This document shows, piece after piece, positions 34,475-58,100 of a DNA stretch of 64,000 bases. The translations under genes and the position numbers were made by a program. Positions within the stretch are counted from its first letter, which is position 1. Every line of letters starts with the position of its first letter. Where the stretch lies: assembly GCA_017499595.2 (NCBI GenBank), contig CM039007.1, positions 744,001 through 808,000 on the forward strand. The letters run 5' to 3'. This DNA is from Psilocybe cubensis (lineage: Eukaryota). Below the pieces are notes generated by a model. It had not been told where the DNA came from. It was given only the letters and a program-made list of their open reading frames with translations, and did not search any database.

Positions 34475-36840
34475 CTACAGCAAAGTCGAGCCGTTAGGGT
34501 CAACCACCTGAGATACTTTCGAAGTGGAAGCTTCAGCATGGTATTGATCCATAGCAGCTCCATTTGCATCAGGTTTATCATCAACTTTAGCACGATGTTG
34601 AGGGGTAACCGTTGAATTGAGGTAAGGCAGAGCTTCAAATTTTGGTTCTTGACCTCCAACAGAAACGCCGAGTCTCGCTAACCCGCCTCGCAAACGCTTG
34701 GTCTCATGGGCCTCCTTTTTTTCCTCCTTCTTTTCCTTCTCCTCGGCTTCTCTTTTTAAACGCTCCAACTTGTCCTTTTTCTCTCGTTCCACCCATGCAC
34801 CGACTTCATCTGCTGCACGAAGGGGATCATTTTTGCAGGACAGAAGAAAACCCTGCAACTCGGCTGTGGAAAATTCATGCTGGGGAACAAAAGATGCAAA
34901 ACGTTCTGCAAGTGCAGGTATGTCCAATGGCTTCGCAAAGTCAGGAAGAGATTTCTTTTCGATATCTAATCCTGCATCCACGGTAAGCTCGTCATCTGGG
35001 TAGAAGCGTACAAACAATGCAGCAGCTTGTTCCTGTGTTGCAAGCTGATATGGAATTTTCACGTCGATTCGTCCAGGACGTAAAAGAGCTTGATCCAGTC
35101 GTTCAACGTAGTTTGTCTATAAGCCGACAATTAGCATGGGATTTCTGTCAGACTTGATGTGCATAACATACCGTTGCAAAAAATAGTTTCCCTTCCTCAC
35201 TTCCAACACCATCGAGAACGTTAAGGAGCCCCGAGAGAGTCACGGCGGATCCGGGTCTTGCCATGTTCATAGCGCGTCTATTCATCCCCATCATGTTCAT
35301 TCCCATCATCATACCACGCATCGACGATTCCTCATTCTCCTGATCTTCGCGAGAAGGAAATGCGCAATCGATATCTTCAATAAGGATTATGGCTTGTTTT
35401 GGTATTGATGATACCAATCGTGCCAGCATTGCATCATCAAGCCTATCCACATCGATGAGGACAAGATAGGAGATAATGGAGAAAAAAGTCGAAGAAACTT
35501 ACATGTTTGACGAAAGCGCAAGAGAATATATCTCGAGACCCAATTCTCCAGCCTGTAAAACTATTGTTAGACACTCACAAAACGCATCAACGACATTCCT
35601 ACTGACGACCGCGTATATTGTTGATGCTAGAGATAGATCGAGGCTCGAATCAATGAATGCTGACCATCAGCAATGGTGGAGAAACCTTACTTTTTCCTGT
35701 TCCTGGGGGACCATATAGAAGATATCCTCTTCGATGAGGAATACCTGCCTTTATGTACCAAGCCTCCGATTTGATAAATTCCCGAGCGTCCTTAACAAGG
35801 GAACTTATAACACCTTCCTGCAGGATGATTGAACTGAGTGGTCTACGGTTCTTGCGTTTCGCGTTGCGCCATGCGCCGCCTCGATGATTAGATAGCATTG
35901 CCTTCGCGTCAAAGCGTAAGTACAACGTTAATGACATGAAGTTTGGAGAAAGTTGACCCTACCTGGTCAGCGCTATGCACAATGACATGTGGTCTACTAG
36001 TGGCCATATATTTCTTTCGCGCATCATCGACCAATGCAGACAACGCGCTCATATCGCGAGTATATAGCCTAAAGTTGCATATGAAGCGATTTCGGTTGCA
36101 ATGTTGGCAATAGAATACGTACGTCAATGACAGCTTTCCCAAAGACCCACTTCCATCCATGATAAAAGCATTATAATTTGCTTGATTTTTTTGTGATCCA
36201 CTCCTCCTGATTTCGGCCCAGTATCCCCTCCATCGAAACAGCTGTGGTTCGTCATATGTTGGGACGTACTCTGCGTGTTCATCGACGTGCCCACCCGGCT
36301 TGGGGTTAGACGCCAAGTTGACCGTCCATTGTCGAAGAGAAGATGCGGCATTGACTTGAAACTGTCTCGAGCGTGTCCACACTTTTTCCTCAGTCTACAT
36401 TGAAGAAGGATGAGAATACGCGACGATGTTCGAGACAAGTATGATGCAACGCACCAGAAACAATATGATCCAGTCGTAGGCAGGGTCACCTTCGGAAAAA
36501 TGTGCGGTAATTGAGTATTCTGTACAGTATATGAGGTATCAGTGAAGGAGCTATGTCAATGACGACATATTTTGAGACGCCACTCACGGAACGGTTTGAA
36601 TCTTTCCATTGCCCATGAGAAAAACCTCCGACCACTTTCAATGATGGTTCCCAATAAGAACAATTTCATACTATTTCCAAAATACGAGTTTGATCCTCCT
36701 GCAGCATTTCCGATCGATTCCAGCTTTGTGCCCATCCCTTGAAGGAGCGATGCTATGAATGAAAAGCCAAAAATGCGAGTTAAACCCTGACCAGGGCCAA
36801 ACCATGACTGTCCAGAGGTGTCGGCAACGTCGAAGGACAT
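34475..36840 (-). CDS. BCS1-like AAA+ ATPase, paralog A
   Basis: KLFLLGTIIESGRR, YVPTYDEPQLFRWRG, RRPLSSIILQEG, GIPHRRGYLLYGPPGTGKS, LIEDIDC, TLSGLLNVLDGVGSEEG, FSTAELQGFLL. Confidence 0.88.
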
Positions 36841-38616
36841 GAGTAGACAGTATCTTTCAGAGAGGTAGGAGGGGGGCGTGAAGTTTTGGTTTCTTCTTCC
36901 TTAACAATTTTGAATTGTAAGGATGGGTAGAAGTCTCCTTGCAGAATCCAGTTTGATAAGAGCGCAGCAGTGGGAAAGCTGACGCATCCGATGATGACTC
37001 ACTTCAACTATTTCTCATGATAATCGATCAGGATCATGCGAAGTGAGATACATTGAAAATGAAGTAGTGCTTCAACACACCTATGGGCCGACAGTATCGA
37101 ATCCAACCCCAACGAGTGTTACACACGCTCCTGCTTGCCAGATTTGTTTTCCAGTCGATGTGAAATAGCAGACTACAAGGTTTGTGTTCCCGCAGATCAA
37201 TTTTTGACTGCGTTGAAGAATACAGAGTAAGGTGACGCAAAGTGGTGTACACAGCGTATATAGGGCGGCACATCGTCATTCATGTCTATATCTGGGTCAA
37301 AGCTGCGGGTATGAATCCATGATGGCTTCCTTAGTTATCGGGATTCGGGGCATACAGAAGCGCGTAAATGGCCAATGGCGCATACAGAGGCCCACTGCGA
37401 AGTTGTATCCTTCCACGTAGCAAGCAAATAGTCGATGATGCTGCTGAGTCAAGCCGAGCTGTTGTCGGGATGACATATGACGTAAACACTGTTACGTAAC
37501 CCAACCTAGTTGGCTCCTGACGTAGAGAAAGGGGCCTGTACGCTGAGAAATTAGAAAGGTATGAGTTCTCGGACACACTGGCGAACTACATAGCCTGACG
37601 AACGATGTGTGTGCTTGGGGAGAAGTAGAAAAGGTAGATTCATGGAAAAGTATGCAACTTTAAGTTTTATGTATTGAAAAATTAGCAAATAAACAACTTC
37701 GTGAGTTGGGAGTGAGCCAAGATAAACGCTAGCGTAGACATCACTGGAATACTTGTTGGATTTACTCCAGCTAACCACTCGTAGTCTCGCCACTCAGCGA
37801 AACCTTTATATACCGTCATGTCCCAGAATAGTTTAAGTTATTCACATTGACAGCAGGACTTTCCGGCGCAGTTCTCGAGAAATGGTCACCGAACAAGTTG
37901 GTAGGCGGAGTGTCTGTTTCCCTACAAATGTTCCGGTGTGTGGAATGCAATGAGGTATAAAGTTAGAAGTCAGAAACTGAGAGAACACATGAGAGTAGCG
38001 TTAATTTTAAAAGACTCTACTAAAAGAAGAATCAGACATACTGTAATTATTCCATCTACGTCCATTTGTTCGCTCGACAAAAATAAACAATGTGAGAACC
38101 TGTGAAGATGCACCCTTTGATAGGTGTCTTCCACCTCTATTTTTGAGATAGCCATCTATACATCCAGTTATATGTCATACCTGTCATTGCTGCTTCAACC
38201 CCTGACATCGATCATATGCGCAGCAAGGGGTAATTTTTTGCCCGGCGCTCATTGCAACAGCGACCAAGTGCTTTAACGCTCACCCAAGAGTAAGAGAGAA
38301 ACTTAATCTGTGTGTGTGTTTGTTGTAATTCATTATGTATACGCGAGTCTTATGCATTTGTTCTGATTTACTCTGAGAGTCAAAATCTAGACTAGATCAT
38401 TGAGTCATGATTTTACCCAAGGTAAAACGACATTTTTATACATAGCTCTCTAAAAATGCGAAGATGGGAAGATGTCGCATTATCGACACCAGTATGCTCG
38501 GCTGATTGATTGACGTCGTCAGAGTAGCAGCCTCGGCTGATGGTATGTTGTTTCTGTTGTTATATGTAGCTTTGAGAGAAGAGAAGGAGGTTGCTCAACT
38601 AGATAAAAGTTACTGA

Positions 38617-39935
38617 CACGTTGGGATATTCAGAATATGAAGTTCCCACGAAGTGGGTAATCGAACGTTACAAAATATTTGAAATATAATAAGGTTTTAA
38701 ATGATGCAACACGCTTTAAATACAAAAGAAATACATATGTTAACTAAGATTGTAGTTACATGGCAACATCCAAATCTTTAAAGAATGTTGTGATAAATTT
38801 TATACATAAAGTACATTTCAAGAATGACTTGTATATTAAATCTGAATCATCCTCTTTGAGACCAAGATATTTTATATCAAAGTTGTCCTTGAAAGGAACT
38901 TTGTATTTTAAATCCATTGTAACTTTTGAATGCCTCGTGAATGTCGAAAAAAATTTAAAGTACAAAGGTCCTTTGTGGGCGCGCTTAGACATAGCATGTT
39001 TTGCACCATCTGTTGTTCATAGACATTTGAAATACAATACTCCCTTACATGCTGCCACATATATTGAGTTTGTTACTACTTACAAAGGTCCTTTATATTT
39101 TAAATATACAGGAACCTAATATCAGTACTTTGTATGTTATAACATATCTCAAATATGTTGTTCCAATATATTCTGCGCCCGCTCATTGCCCATTGAGTGC
39201 CCAACAGTCGCCCACTATAACAGCCACTGCGTGCCCACCTAGATCTCTTTTGCGGGCATTGAACATGCTTGTAGAATTGATGCCTGCAAAATGGTGTTCA
39301 ATGCCAGATGTAGGTGGGCACGCAGTGGCTGTTATAGTGGGCGACTGTTGGGCACTCAATGGGCAATGAGCGGGCGCAGAATATATTGGAACAACATATT
39401 TGAGATATGTTATAACATACAAAGTACTGATATTAGGTTCCTGTATATTTAAAATATAAAGGACCTTTGTAAGTAGTAACAAACTCAATATATGTGGCAG
39501 CATGTAAGGGAGTATTGTATTTCAAATGTCTATGAACAACAGATGGTGCAAAACATGCTATGTCTAAGCGAGCCCACAAAGGACCTTTGTACTTTAAATT
39601 TTTTTCGACATTCAGGAGGCATTCAAAAGTTACAATGGATTTAAAATACAAAGTTCCTTTCAAGGACAACTTTGATATAAAATATCTTGGTCTCAAAGAG
39701 GATGATTCAGATTTAATATACAAGTCATTCTTGAAATGTACTTTATGTATAAAATTTATCACAACATTCTTTAAAGATTTGGATGTTGCCATGTAACTAC
39801 AATCTTAGTTAACATATGTATTTCTTTTTTATTTAAAGCGTGTTGCATCATTTAAAACCTTATTATATTTCAAATATTTTGTAACGTTCGATTACCCACT
39901 TCGTGGGAACTTCATATTCTGAATATCCCGACGTG
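38617..39935. mobile_element. Foldback-type non-autonomous element (1319 bp): ~630-bp inverted arms, 59-bp spacer, CACG...CGTG ends, 3-bp TSD TGA
   Basis: 38617-39246 is the reverse complement of 39306-39935, with about five mismatches seen by eye. TGA flanks both ends (38614-16, 39936-38). Mirror-image ORFs appear in the ORF track. Confidence 0.9.
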
Positions 39936-41510
39936 TGATATTGTACATTCGTCATGTCAATGGAACATAACATAATTGCGTCGGCAATTTATTTGGCACT
40001 CATAATCACACATGCGGAATTTAAATGCAGTATAATACTGCTTTGAAAGAGCATTTCATCTTCGGTAGGTCAGTATCCTTGGTATGTATCTTGCTTGTGA
40101 TATATTCGATCGGGTCGGAGCGAGTCCTCACTTTGAAGATTGAATAGTATCTGTGTCATCGACTGTTGATTTAGTAATCAAGTATATATATTTCGTAGCT
40201 TGCTCTAAGAGGATACAAAATATAGGAAGTAATGAAAGAATTGAAAAAGCAGCTGAGGCTATATAGCCAACTTTTCTCTCGACACTTTTTGGGTGCAGGA
40301 TGGTGCAGCTTAGTGTAATGCCGGGAAACGTTAACCGGCATGTCTGCGCGTTGGCTTGGTAATTGGTATAGCCACTTTGCCGAGCCGGCAAGACACTCCG
40401 GTTATCCAAACACGGGTGCATTCCCCCCGCGATAGCGTGGTGGTGGTTATGACTGACGCCTCCGTTGAATCTTTTGTTCTTCGGTTGTTGTCGTCTCCCT
40501 CTTGTCCCTCGACCCCCCATTCCTCTAAGCTTGAAGTTCAGGAGCTACATTACCAATAGGCACCTACGAGGAGCTGGTGTCTGATTGTGGCGCTTGGAGC
40601 ACGCTTTGGCCATACCTTATACGCGACAGCCTGTGGACTGCGGGTCAAGTGGAGTGTAATTCTGGTGGATTAAACGCTCAGGTATGATAAGAGCTTTCTC
40701 TCTACCCTTTCTATGTAATTTGATATTCAGACATCACCTACAACTGTTTGTCGTCGTTTAAAAGCTGTTTTCTTGACCCTTGAGCCCATCCAACATCACA
40801 CATCGTTCACTGCTTTCGATATCAAGATTGACCATCGCTAGATCATCATCACTCTAAGCAAGCTTCGCTAACAACCTTACGCCGCCGACACGTCCACGTT
40901 CACGATCACGAATACTAGCACAAAGCCTAATACAGATTCCGCTACGCAGTCATTGGAGCAATCCTTCTACAGAGCTCGCATCCAAATCTTCTACCTGCAT
41001 AAAGATAGGATTACCTCCTTTACTCATATAGCTTTCCGCAGTCAACAATCAGCATTTTCGAGGCACAACGGAGGTCGAACGGCAATTCCGGATAATCGTC
41101 ACAAATAGTCCGTCGGCACCCACGATATAAATATCGCCTCGAAACCTCTGAGAGGGCACTGCTTCGGATCCATTTACGGGCAAAATTCCTCCTTGAAATC
41201 AACTACAGTCCAGGGTGACAGACACGACATATTTTTAAGGCCACCAGTTAACCACGGTTTGGGCACGAGATCCCCACGCCTTAACTAGTGTGATCTTTTG
41301 TTTCCATCCCCCCGGCTCTCCGCTGCCCGTGTAGCTCCTTGTTTCTCTCCACCATTGCTTCTTTTTATTTTGTCTTAGGTCCCTACAAGGCGGATTCCCC
41401 TCTCATCTTTTCTGTCTTTTGCCTCATTGTATTGTGGGTAGAAGGTAGTGCCGCCAAGTCGCCCAATATACCAAGCTCTATAACGACATTATATCATTTT
41501 AATCGACAAC

Positions 41511-45832: not shown

Positions 45833-48800
45833 CTAAGCAGCTGTATCTCCAGCAGAAATACTATCAGAGGGTGGCGCTGCAAGGATTTTATCAGATTCAT
45901 GACAGCACAAGGACTTGAAGGTTGCACATACCTGCTACATGTTGATCTTCTCTCCGTAGATCTATGTTACCAGTGTCGTTTATAACCAGTCGGACGTTAC
46001 AGCTATGGCGAACAAAAGTCAGCCCTGATAAAATTTTTTAATACTGAAGGTCTGTACTTCTTTTTGATATTTCCTCGAATTTGGGATTCAGCTATTACCT
46101 GGATCGCACATGATTTTACTTCATTTGACACGGAACGTGCCCCGTAGTTCTCATCATAGCCTTGAGCTAGCTTAGCAATAACTGCAGTTATAAAAGATTA
46201 CTGAAAAATGAGTTTTACTGACTGGCAAAAAATTGGTACCTTCAGGTGTCCACGAGAGACGGATACCATGGTGCTCGTGAGCACGTTTTTTCCATTTATC
46301 CAGTTCAACTCTCACTATCTTCCGAATCTAAAATCGATCGAAACAGTCAATACTCCCCAAAAAATGGTATTTTTGCTCAGCCGACTAACCTCGTTCTCTG
46401 TAAACGGAAGAAATACCACCATCTGGTTGATTCGACCAAGGAATTCATCCCGCTTCAACGTCTTCTTGAGCACGGGGTACAGTGTTTTGTTGAAGTTGGC
46501 TATCCCATTGAGGTACTGTGTGTGCATGTCCACGGCCTCGGTGCGTTCAACCAGTTTGTGTAGACCAGGCGCGGCCTGGCGGATCTCTTCCGACCCTAGG
46601 TTAGACGTCATAATGAAGACAGCGTCAGGGCAGTGGATTGTACCATGCTGTACAAACACATGATAGATAGTATGTTAGCCATATGTGCATTAATACCTAT
46701 AAGATCATGAAGCATACATACCTTTGGATCAGTAATTCGCGCGTCGTCGAAGAGCTGGAGGAACACGGTCAGCACATCCGGATGAGCTTTCTCGATCTCA
46801 TCAAAGAGGACGACGGCCCGGGGATTTTTTCTTAGCTGGTTTGTTAGGTTGCCTCCACCTTCGTAACCCTGTCATGCATTGGAATAGGGACATGAAATTA
46901 GCGTGGAAAACGAGGAGAAAAGGACTGAGAGACTGGAACGTACGACATAGCCCTTGGGAGATCCTGTGAGTGACGCGGAATTTTATTTAATCAGAATTGG
47001 ATCTGAGAGGGCATGAAACAAGGGAGGAGAGCTTACCTGTTAAGTTGGCCACTGTGTGGCTATGTTGGTACTCCGACATGTCAATGCGCACAAACGTTCC
47101 TGACTTCTCAATATCCCTAAGTGTGATCTTCCTCTCCTTCTTCCCCTCCTTCCCACCGTCTTTTGAAGCGTCTCTATTGTTGTTCCCATCTTCATCGCTA
47201 TCATCACCACTCTCGGAATCATTATCCCTTGACGATCTACCATTAGCCTTATCCCTAACCGCTGTCTTCAATGCGTCGTTGTGCAGATATAGCGCAATGC
47301 GCTTTGCAATTTCCGTCTTGCCAATCCCTGAGCTCCCTAGAAACATCAGGACCAGCGGACGCTCGGGGTCGACCCACCCGTTCTCCCGCAATCGTAAGGC
47401 CGAAGCTATACTTCGGATGGGCCCCCGCTGTCCTACCACATTTGCACCTATAGATCTCTCTATCTCGACTAGAGAGAGGGATGAAGCGGTTTTACAATTT
47501 ATTAGTCCGTGATAGGCACATATATATGGAGAGTCAATCTGCTTACGATGTCGCATGCGGTATTTGTCCTCCGCGATTTGCTTTCGCTTTTTTTCTTTCT
47601 CTGCCTTTGCTGGAAATAAGACGGGTTAATATTATGTGATAACCTCTGAATATGAGTATTGGAAACGCAAACATACCAGTCTTCTTCCGCTCAGCCTTGT
47701 TACAGCGTTTCTGAGCTTTGGAGGCACGCTCCGCGCGCTTCCTTGCCTTCTCATCTGACAGACCCTCCAAGTCCCGCTCTCTCTCATGTTGTAAATCATC
47801 CATAAGCTCTCCCATACACACCAAAGCCTCAAGCTGTTCGTCCAATTTTCTCTTTTCCTCTTTTTCTTTTGCCTCCTTTTCCTTCGCCTCCTCCGCCTTG
47901 CGCTGCTGCACCTTCTTGTCCCTTCTCTCCTTCTCCTCAGCACATAGCGCTCTAAACTCTTCCATGTGGACACTACCATGCACCTTCACGTATTCCTCGG
48001 GAAGCATGTTATTGTCGTCCTTTCTTTCCCAATCTCCGCCTGCCTGCAGGATCAGCTCAACAACGCTCATCTCGCCCACGAGACAAGCGAGGTGGAGAGG
48101 TTGGCTATCGTCATCGGAGTACGGATTGGCGGAGGTGATACTGTGTAGATCTATAGAGGCCGGTTTGAGGGACTTAATGATTGACGAGATTCGGCCGTAT
48201 ATGCCACGGCTCCTTGTAATGGCGAGACTCTTGTTTGAGTTGATAATCCTGAAGAAGAGGGTTCGTATAGAACGAAGCGCCGGTGAGATGCGTCGGTGGA
48301 GGGGTTTTGAAAGGCAACTCACTCTTTACAGTATTCTAAATCGCGCTCGCAAATTGCCCTGCAGAGCGCTGCGCTATCTACATATATCACGTATATTTGA
48401 GTCCTCGATCCAACTGAGAAAATCATGTCAAAATTGAGAAATCGTACCTTTTCTCTCAAGCGAGCGGTATCGCATCCTCCACTGGACGGTCGCCTCATGG
48501 TATGCTCTTACTACCTCTATATCAACCCTGGCCAAATCAAAATACTCCCTCGGGAGTCTCTTTTTCTCGTCCTGCCAATCAAACCCCTTAGAAATATCCG
48601 TTGTCGACCCAATATACAGATCGAGCACGGCAGCGTCCCCGCGCATGCATGCAAAGTGCAGCGCGCTCGCGCCGGTCGTGGACTCTGTACCGACAATCTT
48701 TGGGCATAATTCTTCTTTGCGGCACTGTATATCTGCGTCGGAGGACGAGGTGTTGAACGTTGATTGGTCTTTTACCGAGACGTCGAGCCCGGGGAGGGAG

Positions 48801-49064
48801 AGGATAAACGCGAGGAGCTCTGGGTCGCAGTTGAGCGTGGCAGTGTGGAGGGGTGCCCAGCCGAGTGGGTGGCGGGTGTTGATGAGGTCGGGTGATATCT
48901 CGAGCAATCTGTGTTAAATTATGTTGGATTTGATGTATATGTGCACTTGGAAGATATACTTACTGACGAACACGTTCGTGTTCATTTTCTACGAGAAGTT
49001 TACAGAGACTGCGGCCTCCAGAGACTGCCAATTGGGCATCAGGTGGGGTGACTTTCGACTCCAT
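45833..49064 (-). CDS. Ankyrin-repeat + single AAA+ (ClpB NBD2-type) protein, Skd3/CLPB-like
   Basis: Ankyrin segments [32 protein letters not shown]; coiled coil; VVGQ...[75 protein letters not shown]. Confidence 0.9.
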
Positions 49065-52000: not shown

Positions 52001-52284
52001 TGGGGTAGGGCGGTTTAAAAAGCTGATGATAGATGGATACGTTTTTCCAACTCGACACCAGCAGCGACACACAATATTTGATACTCGACACCTCGCATCG
52101 GACGTCTAACATTGGAAAAACTGGCTTTAGATTCAAAAAATGAACGATGATAATAAGCACTGCGATCCAGTCGTTCGGGGAGGTACCTCAATAACCAACC
52201 ACATATTTCAATCCGGCACCGAGAGAGAGAGACCGATGAAATGAACATGAGCGAGGACACGTGCAATGGCTTAAGTACGCGAAG

Positions 52285-52444
52285 GGGAAAGGGAAAGGGA
52301 AAGGGAAAGGGAAAGGGAAAGGGAAAGGGAAAGGGAAAGGGAAAGGGAAAGGGAAAGGGAAAGGGAAAGGGAAAGGGAAAGGGAAAGGGAAAGGGAAAGG
52401 GAAAGGGAAAGGGAAAGGGAAAGGGAAAGGGAAAGGGAAAGGGA
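52285..52444 (+). repeat. Perfect (GGGAAA)26 microsatellite
   Basis: Direct reading: 26 uninterrupted hexamers followed by GGGA. Confidence 0.97.
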
Positions 52445-53109
52445 TGGAAGCTAGAGGTAAACTGTAAATGTATGCGCGCAATGCAAACGCACACGCACAC
52501 GCACACGAACTCAAGGTAAGAATTGCATATTACATACTGACTCCTTGGTGGCGCGCGGGAATGCCGCTGCGCATTAATGTACCTTATGGACTGTGCTTCT
52601 TTTTCATCTCAAGGAGACGGTATTCGATCCTAGTGGATGAATCATGAAGCGATGAACTTTTGAGGGCATTTTTCCATGTACATTAGTTTTTCATCGAAGG
52701 TTTTGGTAGATATCGATATTTTATTATAAGCTTGCCCGTTCTGCATTCGTCCGTCTCAATCGATGGAGAGGGACTTTGTGTGTGAATCATATGGATGCAT
52801 GAAGTGTATTGGGTATATCGGATATCCGAGTCCGAGTCAAGTCTTCCAGCGGGAGGTACAGTGCTCACCGCTCTGAATACATAGATGAAAATTACGCAAA
52901 CTTGATTTACGAGGGATCATACATGGTGAAGAATAATATTCATATTCAAGACAAACATATACACCCGGCACCGAGTGATTAGTAGATTGTGACTATCGAC
53001 TATCGACGGCAGCACAAATACCACGATATAGTTCATGAAGAGTCCGACGGACCGGGCACACCGACGTCGACAGAATCGAAGTCTTCGAAAGCGACTACTT
53101 TTGTAAGTA

Positions 53110-55102: not shown

Positions 55103-58100
55103 ATGGGAAAGAAGGCAGCTAAGGGCGGGAAGGGCCCGCTTCCACATCGTGAGTTTCTTGCTCCCTCTCTTTAATCCAATCCAATCACTCCTCCGTTCCA
55201 CTCTGTTGCGTTGTATTGCATCCCCCGTGTATTCCAACCACCTACCCCTGCCCTACCCTTTCCCCACCCCGCCCTTCATGCACACGGCACACACATTGCA
55301 TGCAAATTTTTTTATCACACACGCATGCACGCATGCGCACCACGAGGCGGCGGCCGGGTTGTCGGGTGTCGGGTGATGGATGCGAGAGTGCGGCATTTAG
55401 ATGTTTTACCCCGCACTTTCTTTATCCCGCTCCGGTGCCGGCATCGTGTTGTACCCCCTTCACTCCTTATTTCCTCATGTTGTGTCCGCCGTGTGCATCG
55501 CGCACGCGCATATATCTATCGCTACTGCGCGCGCGTGTGTTGTGTATTCAAGGAATGATTGTGCTCATTGGATGATGTGCTGATGTTTGCTTTTTATGTT
55601 GCAGTACGTCAACGGACGACACGGTCGTCTAGAGGGCGTGTACGTCTACTTTCTTTTTCTTTTTATATGCCGTGCGCTGATTATGGTCTATGTGCTGTCT
55701 TTTTGGTTATATTCTTCCGGTTCATTTACTATACGTCGTTCATCACACACCTTTTTCAACTCTACCACAGCTCCTACAACCCACGCCCTCCGCCTCGCTC
55801 CCCGACCAGCTGCGGCTGCTCGGGCTATACGCCGCGCCGACGATAGGCGACGGCAACTGCCTCTTCCGCGCGCTCGCGGACCAGGTGCACGGCTCGCCTG
55901 TGCGCCACGCCGAGGTGCGCCGGGACGTGTGCGATTGGATCGAGAAGTGGGGGGAGAGGTATGAGGGGTTTGTAGAGTTTGAAGGGAGCGAGGAGGATGA
56001 GGGGCGGGGGAAGAGTAAAGGGAAGGAGAAAGAAAAGGAGAAGGAGAAGGATAGCGGGGCAGGGGCAGGGGAGGATAAAGGTGAAGGCAGTAGTAACAGT
56101 GCGGGGAAAGGCCCGTCGCCGCGTCTTGCGGCGTATTTGAGGAATATGCGGCAGAATGGGACGTACGGTGGTCATATGGAGCTCTCGGCGTTTGCGCATA
56201 TGACGAGGCGCGATGTGAAGGTTGTGCAGCCGGGCTTGGTGTATGTTATTGAGTGGCGCGCGGGGAGTGGGAGTGGGTCGGGGTCCAGTGCGGAGAGCCA
56301 GAGTCAGAGTCAGGAGAAGAAGGAAGAAGAGGTGAAGGATGCTGCTAAGCCTGTTTCTGTTTCTGCTTCTGCTTCGATAGCGACGAGCGCTACGCCGGTG
56401 TCGAATAGACGCGCGACGCGCTCTGCGAATGCACTGTCAGCTCCTCCGGCCAAGGTCCCGCCGAAAGACAGAGACGAGGGCAAGACGAAGGTGAAAACGG
56501 GGCGGCATGGATATTACGTGTTGGAGGAGGTGAGCAGCGATGAGGAAGATGATAAGCAGGCGTTGGGGTTGGGTTTGGGTAACCGTAGGGGTGCGAGTCG
56601 GGGTACGGCACCGGCGGCGTCGGCAGAGGTGAGTGAGAAAAAGGAAGAGAGGGAGGTGCAGCAGCAGCTCGTTGCACCTGAGCCGACGCCGTCACCGACG
56701 CCTGCGCCCGTGTCGGCGGAGGTAAAGCATGAGGAGGAGGAGCAGTCGGGAGGGCCGACGGTGTATGTCGCGTGAGTGTCTTTATTTTCTCGTGTTTGCT
56801 TTTGTCGGTGTCATGCCCATATATACTCCGCGATCTCGTTTGATCTCTCGGAGATTTGGCTGGTTATGGACATCTACTTTCTGTTTTTGGGGGTGTTTTG
56901 TCGTTTCCTTTTTTTGTGCTCGCCCTTGCTTTGGGTTTATGGCGTGTGCCTGGTTTTGATTGATCTATTTTGCGTTTGTTGCTAACTAAGGCCGGATGTA
57001 TGCGCGTACAGGTACCATGACTGGGAACATTTCTCCTCCATCCGCAACCTGCGCGGTCCACATACAGGCCTACCCAACATCCAAGAAACACCCGCGCACT
57101 CGCATCCGGCATATGTGCCTCCAGCAGACACGGTCTCCGCGCCAGCGGCGCTGAGCAAGGAAGCGTTGAAAGAACGCGAGCGCGAGAAGAAGCGCGAAAG
57201 GAAGGAGAAGGAGCGTGAGAGGGAGAGGGAGCGTAGGGAGAAGGGCAAGGAGAAGATTGTTAGTGCGAGTGCTAGTGCTAGTGCGGGGTTGAAGGTCAAG
57301 TTGAAGTTGCCGGCGAGTAAGACGGGGACGCCTGCGCCTAGTGCGTCTGCGTCTGTGTCTGCGTCTGCGCCGGTGGTTTCTGCTGTGGCGGCACAGGCGC
57401 AGGCGCAGGACCCATTGGCGGTTCCGCTTCCAACGTCCCGTTCAGCGTCGCCGTTCCCTGTGTCGTCGTTGGCTTCGACTTCGACTTCAGCTTCTGGTTC
57501 GACTGGCTCGCGGTCTCCGCAACCGCAGTCACAAACCCAGCCACCGTCGTCTACATCAACTATCTCCTCCACCTCCACATCTACATCTACATCGTTATCA
57601 ACTTCAACGCATACAGCTATCTCTCCTGGTGTAAATATCAACCTCAACCTCAACCTCCAAGCGCCGCATATGGCGCATCTGCACGCTAGCCCCCTCGCTC
57701 TCGCTCGACATCACGAGCAGCAGCAACAACACTCACACCTGCACCACCGCTCGCCGAAGCGCTCGTTTGACGAGTCGAGTGCGAGCGGTGGGGACGGGGA
57801 GAGTGCGAGTGGGAGTGAGAAGCGCAGTCGGAGGCGGGTGGGGAGTGTTAGTGTTGGTTCTGTGCCGGGGGATGTGAGGCTGAGAGCCTCGGTTGGTGGA
57901 GAGAATATGGATGTTGATGTTGATGTTGTTGAGGTCGAAGGCGAGGGACAAGGCGAAGGTGAAGGCGAAGGTGAAGGTGAAGCGGGCACACCAGGGCTAT
58001 CAGCGCCCGGGTCGAGCTCGTCCGAGACGAGTTCGGAGGTTGTCTCTGAAGAGGAAGAGGGCGATGCCGACGAGGGTGGCGGTGATGCCCGTCACCCTCA

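Follow-up and report, generated by a model that had tools for sequence, protein, structure and literature searches.

An intact Skd3/CLPB-type ankyrin-AAA+ gene in Psilocybe cubensis and its divergent Agaricomycete subfamily

Skd3/CLPB proteins (the ANKCLP family of Erives and Fassler) join ankyrin repeats to a single AAA+ nucleotide-binding domain (NBD). In the available text of two papers the family was placed in Holozoa with a stem-holozoan origin (PMC4339202, PMC7343390), in agreement with the description of Skd3 as an animal/choanoflagellate-lineage protein given in an earlier note on the locus studied here. A gene of this architecture on the minus strand of Psilocybe cubensis DNA (45833..49064 of the window, i.e., the whole 64,000-nucleotide stretch analysed, CM039007.1 positions 744,001 to 808,000) raised the question of what it encodes and how it came to be in a mushroom genome. 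Our preferred reading, with a probability of about 0.78, is that it is a transcribed and intact gene for an 811-aa Skd3/CLPB homologue, belonging to a fast-evolving, probably non-mitochondrial subfamily, and that the product would act, by analogy with Skd3, as an unfoldase or disaggregase.

The coding region was modelled as 13 exons, running from an ATG that begins at 49064 to a TAG at 45835-45833, with 12 GT..AG introns of 55–78 nt each. Exons 1–7 were located at 49064-48964, 48908-48448, 48377-48323, 48248-47677, 47609-47547, 47468-47037, and 46963-46944, and exons 8–13 at 46868-46722, 46647-46390, 46327-46240, 46181-46058, 46002-45932, and 45876-45833. The spliced reading frame comprised 2436 nt including the stop (811 aa) with zero internal stops, and all motifs quoted in the earlier note, which had called the gene intact, were recovered in its translation between the same ends. 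A search with exon 6 alone retrieved a database protein from P. cubensis, P0001 (823 aa, 'Uncharacterized protein'), with 100% identity across this exon; over the full length, this protein and the frame-consistent model differed by three substitutions and one 12-residue gap, so that the window DNA is of P. cubensis, probably from a different strain. Residues about 187–198 of P0001 (window 48378-48413), which account for the gap, resulted from another acceptor of intron 2, at 48413 instead of 48377. Because they were absent in the other 13 sequences of our alignment A1, the acceptor at 48377 was preferred; the upstream one probably reflects a choice made in annotation, or else a minor isoform. 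The gene was present as a single copy in the window (tblastn), and its GC content (0.45–0.50) was the same as that of its neighbours.

Expression was assessed with run X1, which is probably RNA (its type was inferred), and with runs X2 and X3; a further run, X5, contributed no contigs. Contigs of X1 were spliced exactly at three of the 12 introns, with minus-strand GT..AG ends: intron 1 (55 nt, 48909..48963), where a contig joined 48908 to 48964 and the plus-strand ends read CT..AC; intron 8 (74 nt, 46648..46721), where 46647 was joined to 46722; and intron 11 (55 nt, 46003..46057), where 46002 was joined to 46058. X2 and X3 were unspliced at these same introns. The contig spanning intron 11 stopped at 45932, which coincides with the predicted donor of intron 12, and X1 depth was present in 12 of 30 bins.

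In the spliced protein, ankyrin repeats precede a single AAA+ module of ClpB-NBD2 type and a D2-small domain, and every catalytic motif is intact. Pfam matches on P0001 included AAA_2 (4e-40), ClpB_D2-small (1e-12), and Ank_3 (6e-10); a Clp_N domain was not found by Pfam, and hmmsearch with a local profile counted one NBD, not two. The first ankyrin module, encoded by exon 2 (48448..48908, minus strand, as are all features of the gene), contained a GW..LH repeat, an insert, and an ALHFA repeat, and was matched by both Ank_3 and Ank. This was the portion nearest to the Skd3 ankyrin domain (i-Evalue 3e-5 to the ankyrin region of 8zr0; 3e-12 to Lottia CLPB by BLASTP). Residues 26–140 aligned with the ankyrin region of Skd3 (8zr0) in the same repeats-linker-repeats layout that the available text of PMC9584538 gives for Skd3, and the module was present twice. 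The second copy, in exon 3 and the start of exon 4 (47921..48377), was identified by Pfam (Ank) and a motif census; its first half is degenerate, leaving one clear repeat at 48106-48029. Between the ankyrin part and the NBD, a K/E-rich helical linker (residues about 301–417; 47548..47965, crossing intron 4) was modelled by AlphaFold2 as two long helices, 310–377 and 384–437 in P0001 numbering, which are absent from the non-Agaricomycete members of A1.

The AAA+ NBD and ClpB D2-small domains are encoded by exons 6–11 (46058..47468), as supported by Pfam (AAA_2, ClpB_D2-small), hmmsearch, and Foldseek. In the spliced translation, Walker A (GSSGIGKT) was located at 47337-47314, the GYVG pore loop at 46952-46866, part of it in exon 7 (20 nt) and part in exon 8, the Walker B segment (with FDEIEK) at 46814-46785, sensor-1 (MTSN) at 46611-46600, the Arg finger (EFLGRI) at 46446-46429, and sensor-2 (YGAR) at 46146-46135. 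Further segments quoted in the earlier note lie at 48880-48845, 48673-48635, 47394-47350, and 46306-46250. The ATPase and pore residues (Walker A/B, the pore-loop Tyr, sensor-1, Arg finger, and sensor-2) were invariant in 42 aligned family members. An AlphaFold2 model built from 42 sequences had a mean predicted local distance difference test (pLDDT) score of 84.4 and a predicted template modelling score (pTM) of 0.52.

An acidic insert of ~55 residues follows the Walker A helix and precedes the next strand (47095..47280). The spacing from Walker A to this strand (FVRIDMSE) was 73 in the window protein, 23–52 in other Agaricales, and 31–32 in Hymenochaetales, compared with 16–18 in the outgroup and a median of 17–18 in most other groups (two reach 33 and 37). 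The insert is lineage-specific and, with its low pLDDT (below 50 at residues 509–538), probably disordered. At the other end of the protein, the ankyrin helices of the model begin at about residue 16, and the N-terminal 30 aa of P0001 contain three basic and five acidic residues; by residue counts, rather than a trained predictor, no mitochondrial presequence is predicted.

To which family, then, does the protein belong? Its top solved chains in a phmmer search against the PDB were all named 'Caseinolytic peptidase B protein homolog': 8zr0 with 322 bits (E = 7e-95), 7xbk with 307, 7ttr with 302, and 7us2 with 301, CLPB chains as a whole ranging from 294 to 322 bits. Lower matches were NBD2 of Thermus thermophilus ClpB (176 bits), ClpC (167), yeast Hsp104 (165), and Escherichia coli ClpB (about 150–154). 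Foldseek likewise placed Skd3 entries first (2.6e-31 to 8.2e-23), with the best ClpB NBD2 at 2e-22. The segments of human CLPB that the earlier note had set beside the fungal ones fell opposite those very ones when phmmer aligned the protein with 7xbk. Across the NBD, the window protein was 50–51% identical to lamprey, Lottia, and sponge sequences, 47% to Rozella or Thamnidium, and 37–39% to bacterial ClpB. The Skd3-specific NBD insertion corresponds to human L507-I534 in the available text of PMC9584538. The spacing from sensor-1 to the Arg finger, which was 50 in the window protein and 45–50 in its subfamily, vs. 54–63 (median 59) in Metazoa and 29–44 (median 36) in the outgroup, suggests that this insertion is partly present, in a shortened form.

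Human and metazoan Skd3 thus gave the best match in both sequence and fold, and share with the window protein the N-terminal ankyrin repeat-insert-repeat, the RLRENGW linker, the single NBD2-type AAA+ module, and D2-small. Unlike them, the window protein has neither a basic presequence nor a PARL-type N-terminus, and it carries a doubled ankyrin module, a helical linker of ~125 residues, and the acidic insert of ~55 residues; the context of its pore loop is GSPKGYVG instead of GSPPGYVG, and NBD identity is only ~50%. Classical fungal Skd3 proteins (from Rozella, Mucorales, Kickxellomycota, Entomophthoromycota, Monoblepharomycota, and aphelids) belong to the same family and also combine ankyrin repeats with a single NBD, but are 539–662 aa long, with one ankyrin module and basic N-termini. 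They are nearer to animal CLPB (the Rozella NBD is ~60% identical to that of lamprey or Lottia), and the window protein did not group with them in unconstrained trees. The NBD is also homologous to NBD2 plus D2-small of Hsp104, Hsp78, and ClpB, and threading is the mechanism to be expected throughout. However, those proteins have two NBDs and a Clp_N domain, and their M-domain lies inside an NBD1, whereas the long helices of the window protein sit between the ankyrin part and the NBD; Hsp104 and ClpB scored about half the bits of CLPB against it. Skd3 of the mitochondrial intermembrane space, as characterised in animals, has a targeting signal, a hydrophobic stretch, and a PARL-processed N-terminus, and is a disaggregase independent of Hsp70 that forms hexamers or dodecamers. 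Judged from these sequence comparisons, the gene was classed as a homologue of the Skd3/CLPB (ANKCLP) family rather than an equivalent of mitochondrial Skd3. The Skd3/CLPB-type identity proposed earlier was thereby borne out, but to take the gene for a plain Skd3 equivalent would overstate it, given the missing presequence and the extra modules.

The closest relatives were found within Agaricomycetes. When the NBD of P0001 was used as query, the best 120 of 6777 matches at E up to 0.001 included 30 named Agaricomycete proteins from 11 genera and two orders, all ranking above the first animal CLPB. The genera were Psilocybe, Cyclocybe, Agrocybe, Flammula, and Phlegmacium in the Agaricineae, and Rickenella, Phellopilus, Schizopora, Coniferiporia, Sanghuangporus, and Fomitiporia in the Hymenochaetales; for Agrocybe, Sanghuangporus, and Fomitiporia, the order is presumed. 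No other Dikarya (Ascomycota or other Basidiomycota) were among the matches listed, which is weak evidence of absence. Including the ankyrin columns in the profile brought many giant ankyrin proteins into the list's lower half.

Members of this subfamily, which among the sequences examined was restricted to Hymenochaetales and Agaricineae, had two 'GW..LH ... ALHYA' units vs. one in the other members examined, and the two ankyrin modules of Rickenella matched each other at E = 7e-15. Their N-termini also differed from those of the rest of the family. Within the first 30 aa of non-Agaricomycete members, 11 of 14 had no acidic residue and three had one, with 2–8 basic residues, a presequence-like composition; at least one acidic residue was present in all 19 Agaricomycete proteins and at least two in 16 of them. 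The ankyrin fold started within about 16 residues in the seven Agaricales proteins. Half of the 12 Hymenochaetales proteins carried, roughly within residues 20–65, a strongly hydrophobic 19-mer with a Kyte-Doolittle value of at least 2.2, so that some copies in this order may be membrane-anchored. The Hymenochaetales were multi-copy, apparently in tandem: five Schizopora proteins were on contigs of equal size (69,646 bp), and copies in Coniferiporia and Sanghuangporus had adjacent locus tags. P. cubensis itself has a second copy outside the window, P0002, with an NBD 66% identical to that of the window gene and placed as its sister (99/67 in the first of the trees described below). Its annotated C-terminus deviates from all relatives beyond the GAR of sensor-2, which suggests a mis-called intron.

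Outside Agaricomycetes, fungal Skd3 proteins were present in public protein sets of Rozella allomycis, Amoeboaphelidium, Thamnidium, Mucor, Dimargaris, Dispira, Tieghemiomyces, Mycoemilia, Zancudomyces, Entomophthora, Massospora, Neoconidiobolus, Gonapodya, and Hyaloraphidium. The family was also found in other opisthokonts (Nuclearia, Ichthyophonus, and Chromosphaera, the last presumably an ichthyosporean) and outside opisthokonts in the euglenid Entosiphon, the diplonemid Namystynia, and Rhodelphis. Lineages were looked up in a taxonomy, save those marked as presumed; the eukprot tags 'Partr', 'Clim', and 'CFRG' we take to be Paraphelidium, Corallochytrium, and Creolimax. Since members occur in many early-diverging fungi and beyond opisthokonts, the family is older than the stem-holozoan origin of the papers: by its sequence record it dates at least to the opisthokonts as a whole, and probably further back. 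Fungal Skd3 as such is not rare, and the Psilocybe gene is a divergent variant of the family.

The co-occurrence of Skd3 with Hsp104 and Hsp78 in choanoflagellates was repeated in a 2017 review (PMC5572323), and ankyrin forms are unmentioned in the available text of a 2025 survey of eukaryotic HSP100s (PMC12283024). No paper reporting a fungal Skd3 was found in a literature search whose scope excluded S2 Fig of PMC4339202 and Supplementary file 1 of PMC7343390. Several fungal records, including the Psilocybe paralogue P0002, have already been named automatically in databases, e.g., as 'Caseinolytic peptidase B protein-like protein', which reduces the novelty of the find. The available text of PMC12258605 describes an orthogroup of Sordariales in which ankyrin repeats precede an AAA domain, together with ClpB_D2-small, UBA_4, and Clr5 domains; Ascomycota may thus hold a related or convergent ankyrin-AAA family beyond the matches listed. 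A search of the ESM Atlas with the NBD as query returned only generic single-NBD clusters (AAA_2 plus ClpB_D2-small, 300–480 aa) from bacteria (Verrucomicrobiota) and phages. These may be relatives of the Skd3 NBD in prokaryotes; they are a lead rather than evidence and stood outside both trees.

For the phylogeny, NBDs were extracted with a profile from A1 and two careful trees were calculated under LG+C20+F+G4, replacing an earlier quick tree of 108 rows; deep placement was not settled in any of the three. Tree 1 had 76 rows, with 10 bacterial ClpB NBD2 and five other Clp-type NBDs as the outgroup, and tree 2 had 60 rows with many more early-diverging fungi. A Skd3-like clade containing all ankyrin-AAA proteins, including those of Agaricomycetes, was recovered with support of 100/97 in tree 1 and 100/99 in tree 2, and a clade of Agaricomycetes with bacterial ClpB was rejected by the approximately unbiased (AU) test (log-likelihood difference, dlnL, 70.8; p = 1e-4); the AAA-domain tree that had been proposed as a check on the identity thus gave no grouping with bacterial ClpB NBD2. 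In tree 1 the Agaricomycete proteins were monophyletic (100/100), Metazoa formed one group (97/97), and Mucorales, Dimargaris, and Rozella formed another (97/90). In tree 2 the early-diverging fungal Skd3 proteins and Nuclearia formed a weakly supported group (69/67). The nearest neighbour of the Agaricomycete clade was in both trees P0302, a metagenomic sequence. Within that clade, the Agaricales copies were nested among those of Hymenochaetales, with Rickenella as their sister (97/99 in tree 1, 92/97 in tree 2). As a separate observation, the Rhodelphis sequence grouped with the 'Clim' holozoan sequence of eukprot (98/95, tree 2), possibly through transcriptome contamination or transfer. On this sequence evidence the NBD of the window gene is of the Skd3 type; the point at which the Agaricomycete clade attaches inside the family is not told by these data.

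Several observations weigh against the reading of the locus as one transcribed gene of an ancient Skd3 family. Both trees were calculated without Hsp78 and Hsp104 sequences; the exclusion of Hsp104 rests on PDB bit scores (165 vs. 322), and Hsp78 stood outside all comparisons. The stem of the Agaricomycete clade was very long (0.80 changes per column in tree 1, 1.44 in tree 2) and near the base of the Skd3-like clade, and backbone support was 57–63 in tree 1 and 22–32 in tree 2; because of this long stem and weak backbone, the exact relation of the subfamily to classical Skd3 is uncertain. The non-opisthokont members stem from transcriptome sets, among which contaminants are possible. The RNA nature of X1 is a guess only; the run gave no cover over 47455-48741, none of its contigs bridged the ankyrin and AAA+ parts, and nine of the 12 introns were without reads. 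That the two parts form a single transcript is argued by the open frame and by homologues of like architecture.

How the gene reached Psilocybe was weighed between descent and transfer, the two origins that the earlier note had offered. For the family as a whole the older origin held; for the Agaricomycete clade the matter stayed undecided under the AU tests. Vertical descent, to which we give slightly less than an even chance, would derive the subfamily from a Skd3 of the fungal ancestor, with loss in most Dikarya and fast evolution after loss of mitochondrial targeting. It is favoured by the many early-diverging fungal lineages with classical Skd3 and their weak group with Nuclearia, by the host-like GC content, and by the 12 short introns, which fit the long residence claimed for the gene earlier and do not prove it. 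A single clade of all fungi was not rejected under dense fungal sampling (second set: dlnL 20.8, AU p = 0.154), but the same constraint was borderline in the first set (dlnL 32.3, p = 0.048), and the free trees put the Agaricomycete clade apart from other fungi. Descent would moreover require many losses, as no Ascomycota or other Basidiomycota were among the matches listed, and the position of the Agaricales copies as sister to Rickenella does not follow the species tree.

That last feature, seen in both trees, speaks for transfer. On this view the gene was acquired from a non-fungal eukaryote by an ancestor of either Hymenochaetales or Agaricomycetes, and Agaricineae may have received it later from a Rickenella-like donor. 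The very patchy spread of the subfamily (two orders among the best 120 matches) and the metagenomic origin of its nearest tree neighbour point the same way, and a clade of Agaricomycetes with Metazoa was not rejected (dlnL 17.5, AU p = 0.083). We nevertheless regard transfer as doubtful. No donor was found among the sequences examined, in none of which the doubled ankyrin module and helical linker occurred together in a possible source; composition and introns are host-like, and with the long stem and weak backbone the placement could be a long-branch effect.

It is very improbable that the locus is not one working gene at all, i.e., that it is a pseudogene or that two adjacent genes were merged in the model. 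The sparse intron support and the uncovered middle of the gene would fit this, but the frame is open over 13 exons with all catalytic motifs intact, a like architecture was independently annotated in 11 genera, and the database annotation conflicts with ours at a single alternative acceptor only. Least credible of all is an independent fusion, without relation to Skd3, of ankyrin repeats to NBD2 of a fungal Hsp78/Hsp104 or bacterial ClpB. In its favour, the NBD resembles NBD2, a trait common to all these families, and the clade lay close to the base of the Skd3-like sequences. Against it, CLPB scored about twice the bits of ClpB or Hsp104, grouping with bacterial ClpB was rejected, the ankyrin module aligned to that of Skd3 in a like repeat-insert-repeat layout, and the RLRENGW linker and apparently part of the NBD insertion are in common with Skd3.

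If the product is a divergent, non-mitochondrial Skd3 homologue, as we prefer, its mode of action can be sketched by analogy. It would assemble into hexameric rings, as in solved Skd3 (available text of PMC9584538), the tyrosine of the GYVG pore loop would grip the polypeptide, and an ATP-driven pull through the pore would lead to unfolding or disaggregation, as in Skd3 and HCLR AAA+ proteins. The ankyrin part, again as in Skd3, may engage the substrate or pair rings. The subfamily would have duplicated its ankyrin module and gained the helical linker and acidic insert in proteins without a mitochondrial presequence. Because no such presequence is predicted, and on the N-terminus alone, the site of action is probably cytosolic or nuclear rather than in the mitochondrial intermembrane space, the compartment of animal Skd3. 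A bolder proposal, which we consider unlikely as a whole, is that the Agaricomycete proteins are neo-functionalised disaggregases outside the mitochondrion, often tandemly amplified, whose helical hairpin is a regulatory coiled coil akin to the M-domain of ClpB/Hsp104, and that the Skd3 family dates to early eukaryotes, before opisthokonts. Such a date, if true, would overturn the published stem-Holozoa origin.

Skd3/CLPB is a human disease gene, associated with 3-methylglutaconic aciduria type 7 and severe congenital neutropenia in the available text of PMC9584538. The fungi that carry Skd3 make it possible to study it where Hsp78 and Hsp104 are also present, and since it is found in many fungi that still keep their two-NBD disaggregases, the idea that Skd3 arose to replace a lost Hsp78 needs revising. 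The Agaricomycete variant amounts to a natural experiment in which Skd3 has lost its targeting signal, doubled its ankyrin module, and acquired a helical spacer; it could reveal the roles of the ankyrin domain and of ring-to-ring contacts. The comparison as a whole showed that the databases and the published account of the family's origin diverge, and defined a structurally distinct Agaricomycete variant.

Upstream of the gene, no site of the three-unit heat-shock element GAAnnTTCnnGAA was found on either strand, allowing up to one mismatch, between the ATG and 50260 (1.2 kb). The whole window held 13 such sites vs. 22.9 expected by chance, a count with no bearing on heat induction. Neighbouring frames encoded an OTU-like cysteine protease domain (2.7e-10; 55681-56775, plus strand) and a BCS1 N-terminal domain (2.1e-12; 35909-36394, minus strand). 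A near-perfect inverted repeat at 38616-39936, with 631-nt arms that are 99% complementary, a 59-nt gap, and a GC content of 35% over the stretch, may represent either a foldback element or an artefact of the assembly. A long dinucleotide-type microsatellite was present at 52150-52530, where the open frames read FPFPFP or GKGKGK.

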